DNA of 64,000 bases, taken from NCBI GenBank assembly GCA_038064855.1, contig JBBTSE010000002.1, positions 8,530-72,529 on the forward strand. Reading direction: 5' to 3'. The DNA comes from Patescibacteria group bacterium. GTDB taxonomy: Bacteria; Patescibacteriota; Minisyncoccia; Ryanbacterales; GWA2-47-10b. The number at the start of each line of letters is the position of its first letter. The stretch's first letter is position 1. This document shows positions 49,622 to 61,440 of this stretch, in pieces. The position numbers were made by a program, and so were the translations under genes. Under the pieces are notes generated by a model that was not told the origin of the DNA, searched no databases, and saw only the letters and a program-made list of their open reading frames with translations.

Positions 49622-50169
49622 TGGCCAAGCCAATGTACAAACGGGGTGTGGGTTTAGCCGAGCTTGTAATTTATGTCGCGGTGTTCTCTATTATTGTTAC
49701 GGTTGTAGTCTCCGGCATGATTCAAGAGGCCAAACTTTTACGCCGGGCGCGCGCCGAGCGCGCAGTGGCCACCGCGGCCGAGACTATTTTGGAGCGCATC
49801 GTGCGGGAGCTCAGGCTCGCCTGCAGTACCCCGACCCCACTGACAACGCCGAGCAATACTATTTCGCTTGCCACTTTTGCGGATCTTTCTTCGCCGAGTG
49901 CCGCGGATTGTACTACAGCTTTATCAACGCGCACAATTAGTCTTTCTGGGCAGGATGTTTTATTGGGTAGCGCGCAGTTAGATCCTTCCGGTATTACAGT
50001 TAGCGGCCTTACATTTATAAAGGTGACGACTCCGGTTTCAACGGTTTCGGACGCAATTGCCGTCAAACTGACACTCTCATCTGGAGCCGCAGGCAGCTAT
50101 CAAGTTACGCGCACATATCACACGACTGCTATAATGAGGGGAAGCTATGATGCCAAAAATCCTAACTAA
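49618..50169 (+). CDS. Pseudopilin-like protein
   Basis: MMAKPMYKRGVGLAELVIYVAVFSIIVTVVVSGM. Confidence 0.6.
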   Translation: MMAKPMYKRGVGLAELVIYVAVFSIIVTVVVSGMIQEAKLLRRARAERAVATAAETILERIVRELRLACSTPTPLTTPSNTISLATFADLSSPSAADCTTALSTRTISLSGQDVLLGSAQLDPSGITVSGLTFIKVTTPVSTVSDAIAVKLTLSSGAAGSYQVTRTYHTTAIMRGSYDAKNPN

Positions 50170-52258
50170 CCGAAAAGGCTTTGCCGCGCTGGCGGTATCC
50201 ATATATATAGTGGTCATTACAGTAGTGGTGGCGGGCACATTCGGGGCGCTGGCAGTCTCCCAATTGCGTGCGGCCCGCGAGCTTATGCTTGGCAAAAAAA
50301 GTTTTGTGACTGCCCAATCGGGGCTCGAAGATATCATCCGCCGCATAAATACGGGAAAAAATTATACTACCGGTCTTGCGTTTCCCACTACCAATGGTGG
50401 TAGCGCTAGTTTTGATATACAAAATGCCACAACGCTTACCCCAAGTATCACAGCTAAGGCCAATATTTCCAATCACTTTCGCTCGGTGAAGGTAGTTTTT
50501 ACCAAAGTGGTTAGCGAGGGCGTCTCTTTTAAGTCAGGCGTACAGGCGGGGTTTCTGGGGGTGTTGATAGAAGATACTAATTTTATTGGTCATACCAGTC
50601 CAAGCAAGAGCGGAGGGGATATTTTTTCAAACGGTTCTGTCAGAGATAAAATGGCATATGGCCCCAACGATTTTGTTACGGGTAGCACTACAGTGGCCAG
50701 GACTATTGCTCATGACGCCTCCGAACCCCCGCTCTATAGAAGTGAAAATAAGCTTCCCAGTGATTTACCAAACTGCCCAAATATAATACTAAATAACTCC
50801 AGTGCGCATCAAGACGCTGCACAAAGTTTTGTAGTGCCTAAAAATGTTACTGCCTATCCGCTTAGCGTAAAGCTTGCTGTAAGGAAGTTCGGCAGTCCCC
50901 CTGGAGATATGACCATCAGAGTGGTGCCAAACAACGACAATGGGACCCCCGATCCTGCAGACGATCGACCCAGAGACACGCCAGTTTTTGGGTCCAAGAG
51001 TTTTTCGAAAGAACTTTTTGGTACCACTTTTACGCCGCAGGAGTATGTTTTGAGCCCCGCGGCCTTTCCGGTCTACGAGGGAGAAAAGTATTGGATTATA
51101 TTTGATAATAGTAACTTTTCGGCTTCTGCTTATTACGAACTATGCAAGGGGACCAATATAAATGGTACTGATTCGCAGTTCAAGTATGTTACAAATTATA
51201 CCGTTGGTTCGGACTGGAGTGCAGATGCCACTAGTGACGCCGCCTTCACTGTATATTTTGGAGATAACGATACCGATGTCTTTGGCAATTTCACCACGAT
51301 GATCGAAGGTGTGCATGCGGGCGGTAATCTTACGGCCATGACTATTATAAACTCCAAAGCTACCACAACTCTCATAGGGCCGCCTCCGAGCAATTTGCCA
51401 CAAACACCAAGCAAAATATTTTACGAGAATCTAACCGCGCCCGTGACATCCAGAGGGACGGCCTGCGCCGATGATGTCATTCCCCCCGGCCATGAATGTG
51501 TAGATTACTATCCTACAATCCCATCCTTTCCGTATGCCCCCGCGCCAGAGCCCGCGGCCCTTATCACTATTAGCAACTGCGAGTGGCAGGAGTGTGTTAA
51601 TATATGGAAGGAAACCGCAGCGGATCCAGTAAAATATGCGGGATTACCAATAGCGGACGACTATAATGTTAGCGGAGTCGACGCACTCGAGGGCCCACAG
51701 GTGATTAACGGAGCTTTAAATATAAATGGTTCCAATGGATGTGTTTTGACCCTGACTGCAGATGCGGGTTCTTCTCGCATATACCACATTAAAGGTATGA
51801 ACGGCCTAGGCTTTGGGGGTAATTTTGGCAACAACTGCAAAGTTGTGGTTGACGGTGCAAATGCGGATGGTTCTGGGGCCAGCGCGTTTTTGATATTTGA
51901 CCATAAAGTATCAGTGGAAAATCGATTCACCTTAGAGGCTACATGTACAGTTGGATGTGACGTCACTAAACCCAAAGGACATATTTATATAATCAGTCTT
52001 GAAAAAAAACCCGCGGATAGTTCGGAGCCCCTAGATACTATTAGAATCCAAGACCACGCGACTGGCGGTGTATATTTTGCCCCGTATGGCCAAATTACGA
52101 TCCAGAATCAGGCCACAGGTGTCGCGGTGAGTGCGGCAGAGGTGCGGCTGCTCGACGGAGCTGAAGTGCACTATGATGATTCGGTGGCGATCGGGGCCTC
52201 GCCGGGGACGAGCTATGAGTATATCCCGCAATTTTCCTCATTTTACGAATCGCCGTAA
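50147..52258 (+). CDS. Giant pilus-associated protein with PilX-like N-terminal domain (703 aa)
   Basis: KGFAALAVSIYIVVITVVVAGTFGALAVSQLRAARELMLGKKSFVTAQSGLEDII, then a large extracellular region. Confidence 0.6.
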   Translation: MMPKILTNRKGFAALAVSIYIVVITVVVAGTFGALAVSQLRAARELMLGKKSFVTAQSGLEDIIRRINTGKNYTTGLAFPTTNGGSASFDIQNATTLTPSITAKANISNHFRSVKVVFTKVVSEGVSFKSGVQAGFLGVLIEDTNFIGHTSPSKSGGDIFSNGSVRDKMAYGPNDFVTGSTTVARTIAHDASEPPLYRSENKLPSDLPNCPNIILNNSSAHQDAAQSFVVPKNVTAYPLSVKLAVRKFGSPPGDMTIRVVPNNDNGTPDPADDRPRDTPVFGSKSFSKELFGTTFTPQEYVLSPAAFPVYEGEKYWIIFDNSNFSASAYYELCKGTNINGTDSQFKYVTNYTVGSDWSADATSDAAFTVYFGDNDTDVFGNFTTMIEGVHAGGNLTAMTIINSKATTTLIGPPPSNLPQTPSKIFYENLTAPVTSRGTACADDVIPPGHECVDYYPTIPSFPYAPAPEPAALITISNCEWQECVNIWKETAADPVKYAGLPIADDYNVSGVDALEGPQVINGALNINGSNGCVLTLTADAGSSRIYHIKGMNGLGFGGNFGNNCKVVVDGANADGSGASAFLIFDHKVSVENRFTLEATCTVGCDVTKPKGHIYIISLEKKPADSSEPLDTIRIQDHATGGVYFAPYGQITIQNQATGVAVSAAEVRLLDGAEVHYDDSVAIGASPGTSYEYIPQFSSFYESP

Positions 52259-52275
52259 AATTTCTCATCCTTCCA

Positions 52276-52391
52276 GTACAAAGGCAGCTTTTGTACTTGG
52301 GGTGGTTGTGGTAGAATAGAGTCATGGAAAGAAAAATCGTGTTTTCTGTCGGCGAGTACTATCATGTGTATAATCGTGGCGTTGATATCTT
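52276..52391. repeat. REP hairpin (GTACAAAGGCAGCTTTTGTAC) plus truncated duplicate of the RAYT promoter/5' end (first 20 codons)
   Basis: Nearly identical to 52878-52993. The truncated ORF MERKIVFSVGEYYHVYNRGV stops shortly after. Confidence 0.75.
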
Positions 52392-52925
52392 TGAGTTATT
52401 GTTGTAATATAAATCCATGGTTAATGTTTCAGTAAAAATAAAAAAACGCTCTGGCGAAGTAGCGTTGAAAGAAGTCTTAGAAGAAGTCCAGAAACTTCGT
52501 CGGGAGGTTTCCCTCTTTTTTCCGCAAGAGGATATCGGAGGATATGCCAACCAAAAACGCATTCGAGAATCTTTTCTGCGCGCGCAACATAAGTATCCTG
52601 TGCGATCTCGCCAATAAATGTTATTGAGACGCAAGATTTCGCAGTGTCTCTTGGCAAATTGCCGCCTAGCATAAGGCGGCTTTTTGCTAGGCAGAAAACA
52701 CTTTTTCTGGATGATCCTCGCGATCAGCGGCTTCATGTAAAGCTTGTCAAAGGACTTTCATCAGTTTTTTCTTTTCGGGTGACGAGGCGGTATCGTACAC
52801 TTTTTTATTTTCATGGCGTTCACACAGCAGTCTTTTTCGAAATTGATCACCGTAAGGATATCTATCGATAAATCATAGTACAAAGGCTGCCTTTGTACTT
52901 GGGGTGGTTGTGGTAGAATAGAGTC

Positions 52926-53582
52926 ATGGAAAGAAAAATCGTGTTTTCTGTCGGCGAGTACTATCATGTGTATAATCGTGGCGTGGAAAAACGAAGAATT
53001 TTTCTCGACAGAAATGACAAAGAACGCTTTCTTCGCCTGCTCTATATAGCAAACAGCGATATACCCGTTGTCTTTCGCCTTAGCCAAAAGAAACCGCTTG
53101 CCGATATTCCTGTCGGCAAAAAAGCAGTAGCAATCGGTGCTTATACGCTGATGCCCAATCATATACATTTACTTATCAAAGAGGTTGTAGACGGTGGATT
53201 GTCTTTGTTTATGGAAAAACTGATGACAGCGTATGCCAAGTATTTCAACAAGAAATATGATCGCGTCGGATCTCTGTTCCAAAGTAGATTTAAGGCCGAG
53301 CATATTGATCGGGATGAATATCTAAAGTATATATATGCCTATATACATCTGAATCCCATAAAACTCATTGAGCCAACCTGGAAGGAAAAGGGTATTGGTG
53401 ATATGAAGCGTGCAAAAAAATTTCTGGATACATATCGATATTCAAGCTATCAAGACTACGCTGGTCTACATCGGCCGGAGAAGATTATCCTTGCGCCAAA
53501 GGGATTTCCCGCGTATTTCGAAGACAGATATGCCTTTGCCGACGCGCATCAAGATTGGTTAGATTTCAAACCAACCACCTAA
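52926..53582 (+). CDS. REP-associated tyrosine transposase (IS200/IS605-like Y1 HUH transposase, RAYT)
   Basis: HUH motif PNHIHLLI and catalytic Tyr region YIYAYIHLNP. REP-like hairpins at 52880-52902 and 53578-53600 flank the gene. Confidence 0.75.
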   Translation: MERKIVFSVGEYYHVYNRGVEKRRIFLDRNDKERFLRLLYIANSDIPVVFRLSQKKPLADIPVGKKAVAIGAYTLMPNHIHLLIKEVVDGGLSLFMEKLMTAYAKYFNKKYDRVGSLFQSRFKAEHIDRDEYLKYIYAYIHLNPIKLIEPTWKEKGIGDMKRAKKFLDTYRYSSYQDYAGLHRPEKIILAPKGFPAYFEDRYAFADAHQDWLDFKPTT

Positions 53583-53594
53583 GGCTGCCTTTGT

Positions 53595-53623
53595 ACTACT
53601 TATCTACTTCGAAGGACAGTAAG
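53595..53623 (+). promoter_or_regulatory. Putative sigma70-like promoter for pilM (TTCGAA-17-TATACT)
   Basis: ttcgaaggacagtaagagtggtgtatact. The same GGTGTATACTAAA element occurs upstream of the histidine kinase gene at 39717-39729. Confidence 0.3.
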
Positions 53624-53643
53624 AGTGGTGTATACTAAAAGCA

Positions 53644-54708
53644 ATGAAGCCGTTTTCCTTCCCGGCCATTGGCGTTGATATATCTGACGAATCGTTTAAA
53701 TACATGCGATTTGGTATGGAGCAAGGTCGCCGTACGATCGCATTTTTTGGCGATCACGATTTGCCGAGCGGTTTGATTGAAGCAGGAGAGATTCAAGATG
53801 TGGCGGGTGTGGCCAAGGTGATTAAAGAGGTTTTGCATCCATATCATCACCACACACCGTACCTTACCTGCTCGTTACCAGAGGAAAAAGGGTTTTTGCG
53901 TCTTGTGCGTATGCAAAAATTGCCCGCATCCGAGGTGCGTCAAGCGCTCGAGTTTCAGCTCGAAGAGCATGTCCCGTATCCACCGGGGGATCTCTATTTT
54001 GATTACCAGGTTTTGCCGCAGGGGAGCATACCCAAAGCCGATATGCAGGTGGTGGTGACCGCGTATCCCAAGGCACTCATTGAGTCATACATCCAAGTAT
54101 TTGAGCAGGCCGGATTTATCCCTGTAGTCTTTGAGCTCGAATCGCAGGCAGTCGCGCGCGCAGTATCGCCTCGCGGGAGCGCGGAGGCGATACTGGTGGG
54201 TGATATTGGCCGTACGCGCACGACTTTTTCCATCGTCTACCATGGCAATGTCCTTTTTACCTCTACCGTAAAGATGGGCGGACGCGATCTTGACGCGACA
54301 CTTCGTGATTCGCTCCATGTCACCGAAGCGCAGGCGCGCGAGATCAAAATCGGCCGCGGTATCGATTTTTCTTCCGAAGAAATAATCAAATCAATGTCAC
54401 CCGCGTTAGCAGTTCTCAAGGCGGAGGCAGAGCGACAGATTCATTTTTGGGAGCGAAGGCGTGAGGAGGGGGAGCCCGCGATCACGACTGCGTATTTGTG
54501 CGGAGGCGACGCGCATCTCAAGGGGTTGCCTGAGTTTCTTTCGCGCGATCTTGGTGTGGCAGTCACGCGCGCAAAGATTTGGGAAAATCTTTTTGATCTC
54601 ACTCACTATGTGCCACCTATGCGCGCGCACGCTACCATGCGGTACGCAACCGCGTTTGGGCTTGCGATGCGCGGTGACGACGATTTATTTTCCGATATAC
54701 ATATATAG
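53644..54708 (+). CDS. pilM: Type IV pilus assembly protein PilM (actin-like ATPase fold)
   Basis: AIGVDISDESFKYMRF and later ASKHA-fold motifs (LVGDIGRTRTTF). Confidence 0.8.
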   Translation: MKPFSFPAIGVDISDESFKYMRFGMEQGRRTIAFFGDHDLPSGLIEAGEIQDVAGVAKVIKEVLHPYHHHTPYLTCSLPEEKGFLRLVRMQKLPASEVRQALEFQLEEHVPYPPGDLYFDYQVLPQGSIPKADMQVVVTAYPKALIESYIQVFEQAGFIPVVFELESQAVARAVSPRGSAEAILVGDIGRTRTTFSIVYHGNVLFTSTVKMGGRDLDATLRDSLHVTEAQAREIKIGRGIDFSSEEIIKSMSPALAVLKAEAERQIHFWERRREEGEPAITTAYLCGGDAHLKGLPEFLSRDLGVAVTRAKIWENLFDLTHYVPPMRAHATMRYATAFGLAMRGDDDLFSDIHI

Positions 54709-58107: not shown

Positions 58108-58536
58108 ATGAGTACCATACCAAAGCCCTTTGAACTCAAGCCAGAGGACATCAGCTATGCGACGACGCCTGATGGTAAGCGCGTACGCGCGACACTCACG
58201 CTCATCCGTGATGGGTGTGCGGCTCAAGCATCGGCCGAGCAAGATGATTTAGTGTCTGCTGTGATTGCCGCCGTCAATCGTGCCCTCGAACGCTGGTTTG
58301 ATGCGGGGCGCGTGAATGCCGCGCCAAATGGCAGTATACTCTCAACACCCGATGGTTGGCTGTGCTGCGCTTTCGCGTATTGCATGGGAGGCCGCCTCGA
58401 GAGGGGCGAAGCTACGCATGTGGATGTCGCCAAGGCCGCAGCATTGGCCTATGTCACGGCCGTCAATAAGCTCGTCGCCGTTCTCGGCATCGAGGCGCTT
58501 TTCACCTCAGACCCAAAAGCCACCCAATCCGCCTAG
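58108..58536 (+). CDS. Hypothetical protein (locally GC-rich gene)
   Basis: RBS aaaaggaggaagg. Followed by terminator gcctagagcaaccctctaggcgatttt. Confidence 0.45.
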   Translation: MSTIPKPFELKPEDISYATTPDGKRVRATLTLIRDGCAAQASAEQDDLVSAVIAAVNRALERWFDAGRVNAAPNGSILSTPDGWLCCAFAYCMGGRLERGEATHVDVAKAAALAYVTAVNKLVAVLGIEALFTSDPKATQSA

Positions 58537-58560
58537 AGCAACCCTCTAGGCGATTTTCTT
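58528..58560 (+). terminator. Rho-independent terminator (GCCTAGAG-caaccc-TCTAGGCG + T run)
   Basis: An identical hairpin recurs at 61404-61440. Confidence 0.6.
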
Positions 58561-58593
58561 TTTCATTTATCAGTAATATGTTTTAATAGAGGT

Positions 58594-61397: not shown

Positions 61398-61403
61398 CTC
61401 AAC

Positions 61404-61440
61404 CCGCCTAGAGCAACCCTCTAGGCGATTTTTTTTTGGT
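61404..61440 (+). terminator. Rho-independent terminator (same hairpin as 58528)
   Basis: aacccgcctagagcaaccctctaggcgattttttttt. Confidence 0.65.

Follow-up and report, generated by a model that had tools for sequence, protein, structure and literature searches.

We analyzed a stretch of 64,000 nt from a Patescibacteria group bacterium of the Ryanbacterales (assembly GCA_038064855.1, contig JBBTSE010000002.1, positions 8,530 to 72,529; hereafter the window). In this window two operons for type IV pilus (T4P) proteins are separated by a small genetic unit. Its gene codes for a protein of 218 amino acids (aa), a single-tyrosine (Y1) HUH enzyme which resembles the REP-associated tyrosine transposases (RAYTs; REP, repetitive extragenic palindromic sequence). 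A palindrome precedes the gene and the remnant of a palindrome is found at its end. The upstream end of the unit is present twice, and a predicted toxin-antitoxin (TA) cassette lies between both copies. The features of the locus are the following (window coordinates; ORF, open reading frame).

50147-52258, plus strand: last gene of the upstream pilus operon, 703 aa, without a Pfam family, downstream of PilB, PilC and five N-methyl pilin-like genes
52275-52385, plus strand: left repeat copy with hairpin A, extended -10 box TGGTAGAAT at 52309-52317 and RAYT codons 1-20
52275-52297, no strand: hairpin A, a 23-nt palindrome AGTACAAAGGCAGCTTTTGTACT with one G-T mismatch; loop CAG, flipped relative to hairpin B
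52324-52407, plus strand: truncated pseudo-start, an ORF of 27 aa, MERKIVFSVGEYYHVYNRGV followed by DIFELLL; matched by tblastn at 52324-52404 with query residues 1-27
52382-52410, plus strand: sigma-70-like promoter TTGATA-17-TAATAT, 9 of 12 matches; a match to the consensus only, and the region has no more such matches than shuffled sequence
52417-52617, plus strand: antitoxin-like gene, 66 aa, 39-49% identical (E = 1e-12 to 1e-14) to ORFs preceding the toxin homologues in loci L087 and L088
52614-52871, plus strand: ParE-like toxin gene of an 85-aa family; 11 homologues with 53-59% identity over the full length
52877-52987, plus strand: right repeat copy with hairpin B, extended -10 box TGGTAGAAT at 52911-52919 and the start of the intact gene
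52877-52899, no strand: hairpin B, AGTACAAAGGCTGCCTTTGTACT, with a 10-bp stem free of mismatches and a loop of 3 nt; the toxin stop codon lies 5 nt upstream
52926-53582, plus strand: intact RAYT-like Y1 HUH gene, 218 aa, with H79-I-H81, Y139-IHL-N143-P144 and S173-S174
53581-53597, no strand: remnant of the downstream hairpin, AAGGCTGCCTTTGTACT, loop and right arm only, overlapping the RAYT stop codon
53644-54708, plus strand: pilM, first gene of the downstream pilMNO operon (Pfam PilM_2, 2e-35)

The duplicated left end and the hairpins

The two 111-nt copies are 97% identical and their starts lie 602 nt apart. Each copy consists of the 23-nt palindrome, the -10 box TGGTAGAAT, six bases, the ATG and 20 codons. 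The left edge of the repeat is the outermost base pair of the palindrome. The right edge lies inside codon 20-21, and the repeat is effectively 109 nt long plus a microhomology of 2 nt. Mismatches between the copies are found at three positions (52286, 52289 and 52384); in the hairpins one loop base is flipped and one stem base is different, and the following 86 nt are identical. A preliminary description of this DNA, whose coordinates are 2-3 nt off, had reported a 115-bp tandem duplication with a truncated pseudo-start. Hairpin, promoter and 20 codons are indeed duplicated 602 bp upstream, and the pseudo-start is present as a stub of 27 aa. The repeat, however, measures 111 nt and is not tandem: the copies are direct repeats which bracket 491 nt of unrelated DNA.

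A further similarity of 33 nt (76%, with the exact 12-mer TGGCGTTGATAT) between 52377-52409 and 53670-53702, in the 5′ region of pilM, was considered as a trace of recombination and rejected. It does not extend further and is far less conserved than the 111-nt repeat. We therefore judge it to be due to chance.

Hairpin A, which begins 16 nt beyond the stop codon of the 703-aa gene, has as single-stranded DNA a predicted folding energy of -6.1 kcal/mol (z = -2.6). Hairpin B is more stable (-8.3 kcal/mol, z = -5.0). At the downstream end the half-hairpin has no fold (-1.0 kcal/mol, z = +0.45). By comparison with locus L085, in which TAA is followed by GTACAAGGGATGCCCTTGTAC, it appears to have lost about 7 nt (GTACAAA). 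Thus, from the three flanking REPs of the preliminary description two palindromes remain (52275 and 52877), and the third, placed at 53578, is only a non-folding right half. The 21-nt palindrome occurs twice in the window with up to 3 mismatches; 0.00 occurrences are expected from 100 shuffles.

A RAYT-like protein family with cognate hairpins

Y1_Tnp is the sole Pfam family found in the 218-aa ORF (E = 1.5e-9, above the cut-off). Among the NCBIfam models only the RAYT model REP_Tyr_transpos (NF047646) matches, with E = 4.8e-11, and no IS200 model does so at E <= 1. An AlphaFold2 model of the protein (pLDDT 85, pTM 0.86) was compared with the PDB using Foldseek. The first rank is taken by 4ER8, the Escherichia coli RAYT bound to REP (E = 5.5e-6), and the TnpA proteins of IS608 and ISDra2 come next (about 1e-3). 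With hhalign, residues H59, H61, Y115 and N119 of E. coli RayT (b0228), which are named as active-site residues in PMC3479197, are aligned to H79, H81, Y139 and N143. In an alignment of 20 homologues H79, H81, Y135, Y139, N143, P144 and S173-S174 are invariant. The Y1_Tnp domain, the Y-x3-NP motif, the fold match to 4ER8 and the aligned catalytic residues support the assignment of this Y1 HUH tyrosine enzyme to the RAYT class and not to the IS200 class. The preliminary description, which had proposed an IS200-like HUH tyrosine enzyme and a RAYT, was right in this respect, and the catalytic tyrosine can be named as Y139.

We searched for homologues of the protein and collected 80 metagenome loci encoding them, plus others by exact look-up. 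The word-indexed search gave 3,182 homologues; the best 120 of these 3,182 are 57-71% identical to the window protein, and the named ones among them belong to Ryan-, Lloyd-, Kaiser- and Yanofskybacteria. An exhaustive search gave 340 clusters (50% identity) at E <= 1e-30. A hairpin flanks the gene within about 75 nt in 79 of 83 loci. In 59 loci both sides carry one, with the same arm in 42 of the 59. The three apical base pairs G-C, G-C and A-T (AGG-N5-CCT) are nearly invariant, and the outer pairs covary and take all four Watson-Crick types. Hairpins of this type have a density of 6.2 per kb within about 100 nt of the gene ends, versus 0.09 per kb in the other 357 kb of the flanks. The loop orientation varies freely across the family; together with the flipped loop of hairpins A and B this points to frequent switching within the hairpin.

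Protein and palindrome go together. The closest protein (71%), whose gene adjoins recA in another genome, also has the closest hairpin (GTACAAGGG-ATG-CCCTTGTAC). Only one full copy of the unit is present in the 64 kb of the window. In four related loci a second family gene is found which is 39-46% identical to the first, and each gene has its own hairpin type. Some flanks contain inverted doublets of the hairpin similar to REPINs, and solo or extra cognate hairpins occur in loci L037, L080, L089 and L090. Moreover, in 17 of 84 family genes the gene's own hairpin recurs in frame within the coding sequence, where in 12 cases it lies at residues 48-55 (L008, L010, L014, L017, L019, L028, L036, L038, L050, L057, L058 and L078) and in the others at different positions (L009, L027, L031, L063 and L074). 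Most of these in-frame hairpins encode a loop x-Q/E-G-L-x-L ahead of the HUH motif. The gene of the window has none.

In the window the -10 box ends 6 nt before the ATG of the RAYT gene. Of 49 family loci, 27 have a TANNNT box at exactly this distance from the ATG, and a TG frequently precedes it. The RAYT family genes are therefore probably read from leaderless transcripts, and the promoter which the preliminary description had placed in the duplicated left end gains support from the recurrence of this box. The RAYT gene is not alone in this: several genes have a box resembling the -10 element 6-8 nt before the ATG and lack a Shine-Dalgarno sequence (window 53620-53646, 52405-52419 and 52911-52928, and upstream of pilM in L089-L091). 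Such boxes near the ATG of several genes suggest that leaderless transcripts may be widespread in the lineage.

In five loci (L020, L036, L038, L014 and L045) we observed upstream of the RAYT homologue a shared gene order of a large peptidoglycan (PG)-binding-like protein, a TPR protein and the RAYT; in L020 and L038 a cognate hairpin lies on each side of the TPR gene. This could be either conserved synteny in one clade or a passenger gene bounded by hairpins.

How does the unit compare with known systems? In common with the RAYT/TnpA-REP proteins (class 2 TnpA-Y1; E. coli RayT, 4ER8) the window protein has the HUH motif, a single tyrosine in a Y-x3-NP helix and an SS motif thereafter, and these proteins are its best fold match. 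Further traits shared by the family are the bracketing of the gene by copies of one palindrome, sometimes as inverted doublets and in the window with a half downstream, the covariation of protein and palindrome, and the low copy number with divergent paralogues. The family differs from the known RAYTs by a helical C-terminal extension of 70 residues, the probably leaderless promoter and an apparent mobility between sites and genomes. Within the RAYTs the motifs NHIH (NHFH in most relatives), LFQ, YIHLNP and YSSY correspond to the signature NH[YF/I]H, FQ, Y[IV]HLNP and SS of subclass 2.1 (Table 1 in Quentin et al. 2018; this is group 1 of Bertels, 'TIRYT'-like). The assignment is by motif; the length of 218 aa is close to the median of 238 aa. 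Subclass 2.1 was reported to be without nearby REP-like hairpins and to carry a C-terminal domain resembling a helix-turn-helix (HTH) (Quentin et al. 2018). Here, in contrast, nearly all members have cognate hairpins, and Pfam detects no HTH family. In-frame REPs within the own gene are known among RAYTs only for subclass 2.4, between HUH and tyrosine (Quentin et al. 2018). The in-frame hairpins described above are similar, but their preferred position is before the HUH motif.

The preliminary description had called the hairpins REPs. All 2.5 copies in the 64 kb are, however, at this locus, and the search of 185,579 reference genomes, among which the source species is evidently not represented, gave only two exact matches to the palindrome, which in no genome of the collection is repetitive. 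Both matches (L003 3418-3438 and L004 7067-7087) are located on one 5-Mb contig, CBDBMC010000001.1, from an unrelated Poribacteria metagenome-assembled genome, and no RAYT homologue is present in either 8-kb stretch around them. Extra cognate copies in the related loci are few and mostly within 1-4 kb (L037, L080, and L089 at +4.2 kb). That the hairpin is a REP in the strict sense is unproven; within 64 kb it is local to the unit. The unit behaves like a RAYT in its protein class, in the identity of the hairpins on both sides in many family loci and in its divergent paralogues, and like a minimal insertion sequence (IS) in that the hairpins stay near the gene.

The insertion site and the toxin-antitoxin cassette

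On the upstream side of the unit we find PilB, PilC, five N-methyl pilin-like proteins and two large proteins, on the downstream side PilM, PilN and a PilO-like protein. The unit thus separates the genes for pilins and large proteins from pilMNO, as the preliminary description had it. We compared the site in related genomes, and in three related lineages the junction is uninterrupted, with the homologue of the 703-aa gene directly abutting pilM. Identities refer to the PilM protein of the window.

L091, L096/L097 and L098/L099 (PilM 64-69%): empty site, large gene followed by pilM after 20-53 nt
L090 (PilM 82%): solo hairpin TTACCAAGGGTTACCCTTGGTAA
L089 (PilM 84%): RAYT flanked by the hairpin type of L090
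L095 (PilM 68%): a third hairpin type standing alone, a PemK toxin cassette encoded on the opposite strand, and a RAYT associated with a fourth type

The distance from the stop codon of the large gene to the start of a hairpin is 13-16 nt in the window, in L090 and in L095. The RAYT of L089 is just 59.5% identical to that of the window while PilM is 84% identical, and it has relatives with 71% identity elsewhere. Since relatives show an empty site, a solo hairpin or a non-orthologous RAYT, the pilus site is an insertion hotspot. The preliminary description had regarded the RAYT as a domesticated transposase. This is doubtful, as the non-orthologous members at the same site and the closest homologue beside recA look like mobility. 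In all compared loci, as in the window, pilM has retained its own -10 box (TATACT in the window, 7 nt upstream of the ATG), and the insertion is therefore located between transcription units.

The combination of a RAYT with a toxin cassette recurs at the pilus site in the window and in L095 with unrelated cassettes. In L095 (2253-3700) the solo hairpin is of the CACTTGG type, and the PemK toxin and a partner of 68 aa are encoded on the minus strand next to the RAYT with its own hairpin type.

In the window the 491 nt between the repeat copies were described earlier as containing two orphan ORFs, which does not hold: they form a conserved pair of an antitoxin-like and a ParE-like gene. The pair is conserved in L087 and L088 with overlapping stop and start codons. 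The toxin ORF retains all residues which are invariant in the 11 homologues and ends with the motif FFEIDHRKDIY. Its match to Pfam ParE_like (E = 0.023, 15.2 bits) is below the cut-off of 24.4; for the homologue P0127 a precomputed match to PF24732 exists. The pair is a predicted type II TA cassette of the ParE/RelE kind. It shares with these systems two small co-oriented genes with the antitoxin first, the stop/start overlap, the conservation as a pair, the FFEIDHRKDIY motif and the ParE_like signal; it is unlike them in the Pfam score below the cut-off, in an ATA start and in being embedded between duplicated left ends of a RAYT unit. In L087 and L088 the toxin ATG overlaps the antitoxin TGA. 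A single G>A in the window gives TAA and ATA, so the toxin has lost its canonical start, with the antitoxin untouched; the next in-frame start is a GTG at 52644. The putative cassette promoter has a -35 box that spans the junction of repeat and insert, and 6 nt lie between its -10 box and the antitoxin ATG. Neither a RAYT fragment nor an AGG-N5-CCT hairpin is found alongside the homologous pairs of L087 and L088, so the RAYT element does not regularly carry this cassette.

Within the 5′ part of the toxin frame (52661-52680) a terminator-like hairpin GCCGCCTAGCATAAGGCGGC is followed by TTTTTGC. The public gene calls for the contig list an ORF of 83 aa on the minus strand at window 52421-52672 and miss the antitoxin and toxin genes on the plus strand.

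A few observations concern the wider surroundings. In L096 (6565-8025; PilM 64%) a gene for a large serine recombinase (Resolvase/Recombinase/Zn_ribbon_recom) lies just downstream of the pilMNO genes, a position which in the window is occupied by RNase T and an M50 peptidase. An element of 38 nt is present in two copies (95%) at 58525-58562 and 61400-61437 of the window, one after an ORF of 142 aa and the other after a MopE-like ORF of 810 aa. In this element a T-run comes after the palindrome CGCCTAGAGCAACCCTCTAGGCG; it looks like a duplicated intrinsic terminator and does not belong to the AGG-N5-CCT hairpins. An Rfam scan of the region found no known RNA family. In the phage collection there was a single weak match with 29% identity and no sign of phage carriage.

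Proposed mechanism and alternative explanations

We suggest, with a probability of roughly 0.7, that the locus carries a compact unit of hairpin, leaderless promoter, Y1 HUH gene and hairpin, which has been inserted between the pilus operons, has had its left end duplicated around a TA cassette and is partly disabled. The unit would be part of a large class-2 (RAYT/TnpA-REP-like) subfamily found throughout the Patescibacteria, in which each member coevolves with its own near-perfect palindrome. The proposed steps are as follows. By analogy with E. coli TnpA-REP and with the TnpA proteins of IS200 and IS608, the protein would bind the hairpin when it is extruded on single-stranded DNA. Then one strand could be cut and rejoined near the foot of the hairpin, using Tyr139 and the metal site at H79/H81; a single-strand "peel and paste" chemistry as in IS200 is the likely mode of action. 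Cutting and rejoining would move or copy the hairpins together with the gene between them. In this way the unit might have reached the spacer that separates pilMNO from the pilin/large-protein operon, a site at which such units appear to have inserted repeatedly in related genomes.

A secondary rearrangement could finally have put the 491-nt ParE-like cassette between two copies of the left end with its hairpin, promoter and 20 codons. For this we imagine a single-strand break by the nuclease at the foot of the hairpin, where a RAYT or an IS200-type enzyme would be expected to cleave. The opposite strand would have been broken about 110 nt further downstream, and fill-in would have followed once the cassette was inserted. 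Instead of the fill-in, an illegitimate joining inside codon 20-21 is conceivable. The left edge of the repeat lies exactly at the foot of the hairpin, which fits a nuclease-made break there; the cassette ends 5 nt before hairpin B. The gene now has an intact upstream hairpin and a non-folding half downstream. With the left arm of the downstream hairpin missing and the captured toxin devoid of an ATG, the unit looks partly disabled.

Several points weigh against this proposal. The score of the protein with the equivalog model NF047646 is 42.7 bits, below the cut-off of 80. In the PDB the link to the RAYTs is made by the fold search and hhalign alone; the hhalign probability against E. coli RayT is just 51%, and neither phmmer with the single protein nor hmmsearch with the profile gave a relevant match. 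The window hairpin begins with AGTACAAAGG and lacks the GT[AG]G head which is needed by E. coli TnpA-REP; the feet are variable in the family, and the apical AGG-N5-CCT is found instead. A dispersed population of tens to hundreds of copies is not evident from the 64 kb: neither a further palindrome (up to 3 mismatches) nor a half-site occurs elsewhere in the window. Cleavage and transposition by members of the subfamily are predicted by analogy. We looked for a duplicated 5′ end at 84 family loci and found none besides that of the window. The origin of the duplication is inferred from a single junction. The same structure would also result from a tandem duplication of the unit, if the first gene body was later replaced, or from a Campbell-type integration of a 602-nt circle by a single crossover.

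Could the unit rather be an ordinary autonomous insertion sequence of the IS200 type, about 720 bp long, which copies itself by means of subterminal hairpins and does not service hairpin repeats? A unit of about 0.7 kb with one Y1 HUH gene between subterminal hairpins is indeed the layout of IS200 (IS200/IS605, subclass 1.1). That the hairpin stays next to the gene, in the window as well as across most of the 357 kb flanking the related genes, would fit, and so would the presence/absence polymorphism with non-orthologous occupants at the pilus site, the different genomic context of the closest homologue and the motif signature of subclass 2.1 or Bertels group 1, which is the more IS-like RAYT group. 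IS200, however, has the motif Y-x3-Q in a core-only protein of about 150 aa; here we find YIHLNP, the Y-x3-NP of class 2, in a protein of 218 aa with a C-terminal extension. NCBIfam gives the RAYT model alone and the best fold match is a RAYT. The ends of IS200 are distinct and its copies many and near-identical per genome. In our case the same palindrome is found at both ends in many family loci (in the window as a half downstream), no second full copy exists in the 64 kb or in the related flanks, and the co-resident copies in other loci are 39-46% and not about 99% identical. Also the solo cognate hairpins in other intergenic regions and the in-frame hairpins in 17 of 84 genes are a REP-like behavior. 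We therefore regard an IS200-type element as an unlikely explanation.

In a second alternative the palindromes would be terminators or operators of the host, the protein a domesticated non-mobile factor binding DNA or RNA, and the repeat a product of replication slippage or recombination. The hairpins do lie at gene boundaries, the upstream one abuts a promoter and hairpin B is terminator-like on the minus strand. The strong conservation (57-71% identity in the best 120 of 3,182 homologues, 340 clusters at E <= 1e-30) and a synteny common to 13 loci could also be taken as signs of a host function. No T-run follows the hairpin on the coding strand, however, and true terminators in the window look different. 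The hairpin type follows the protein lineage even at the same chromosomal site, relatives have empty sites, doublet forms and in-frame internal copies exist, and the full catalytic set is invariant. In our view this explanation is very unlikely. In a third alternative the assembler would have fused two variants of the population, and the repeat with its insert would be an artefact. The short-read metagenome assembly and the contigs of L089 and L090 which end exactly at the site could raise this suspicion, but we reject it as extremely improbable. Three mismatches distinguish the repeat copies, and the insert forms a coherent cassette of two genes whose homologues are found elsewhere. Two independent assemblies of replicate Hainich groundwater samples agree fully in the arrangement, with 0 mismatches to the window over 20.6 and 14.7 kb, so that it is not a one-off assembly error.

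A more far-reaching extension of the proposed mechanism is speculative and rather doubtful. Patescibacteria might harbor a large undescribed subclass of active, site-seeking RAYT-like nucleases with AGG-N5-CCT hairpins which lack the GTAG head, spread their hairpins locally and in-frame and capture cassettes by nicking at the hairpin foot. If so, the 111-nt duplication which starts at the foot and surrounds the TA pair would be a natural capture scar, and it would be more than coincidence that in L095 the pilus site also holds a RAYT and a toxin cassette, there a different one.

To our knowledge, nearly all work on RAYTs and their palindromes concerns complete genomes of Proteobacteria, Cyanobacteria and Bacteroidetes. 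In the literature which we searched no description of RAYTs in Patescibacteria was found. We regard the case as a variant within a known class of systems; it has the signature of subclass 2.1 and contradicts the lack of hairpins reported for that subclass.

In summary, the locus is a fairly ordinary small island of mobile DNA, and the effect on the host genome is small, with the two operons around the insertion each keeping their own promoter. Its interest lies mainly in the junction at the hairpin foot and in the family which it exposes. The boundary of the duplication at the hairpin foot gives a concrete and testable cleavage site. The occupied, solo-hairpin and empty versions of one chromosomal site form a natural series on the question whether and how such units move. 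Finally, a protein family in ultra-small groundwater bacteria comes into view which has the signature of the reportedly hairpin-less subclass 2.1, yet nearly all of its members are bracketed by a coevolving hairpin of a new type.

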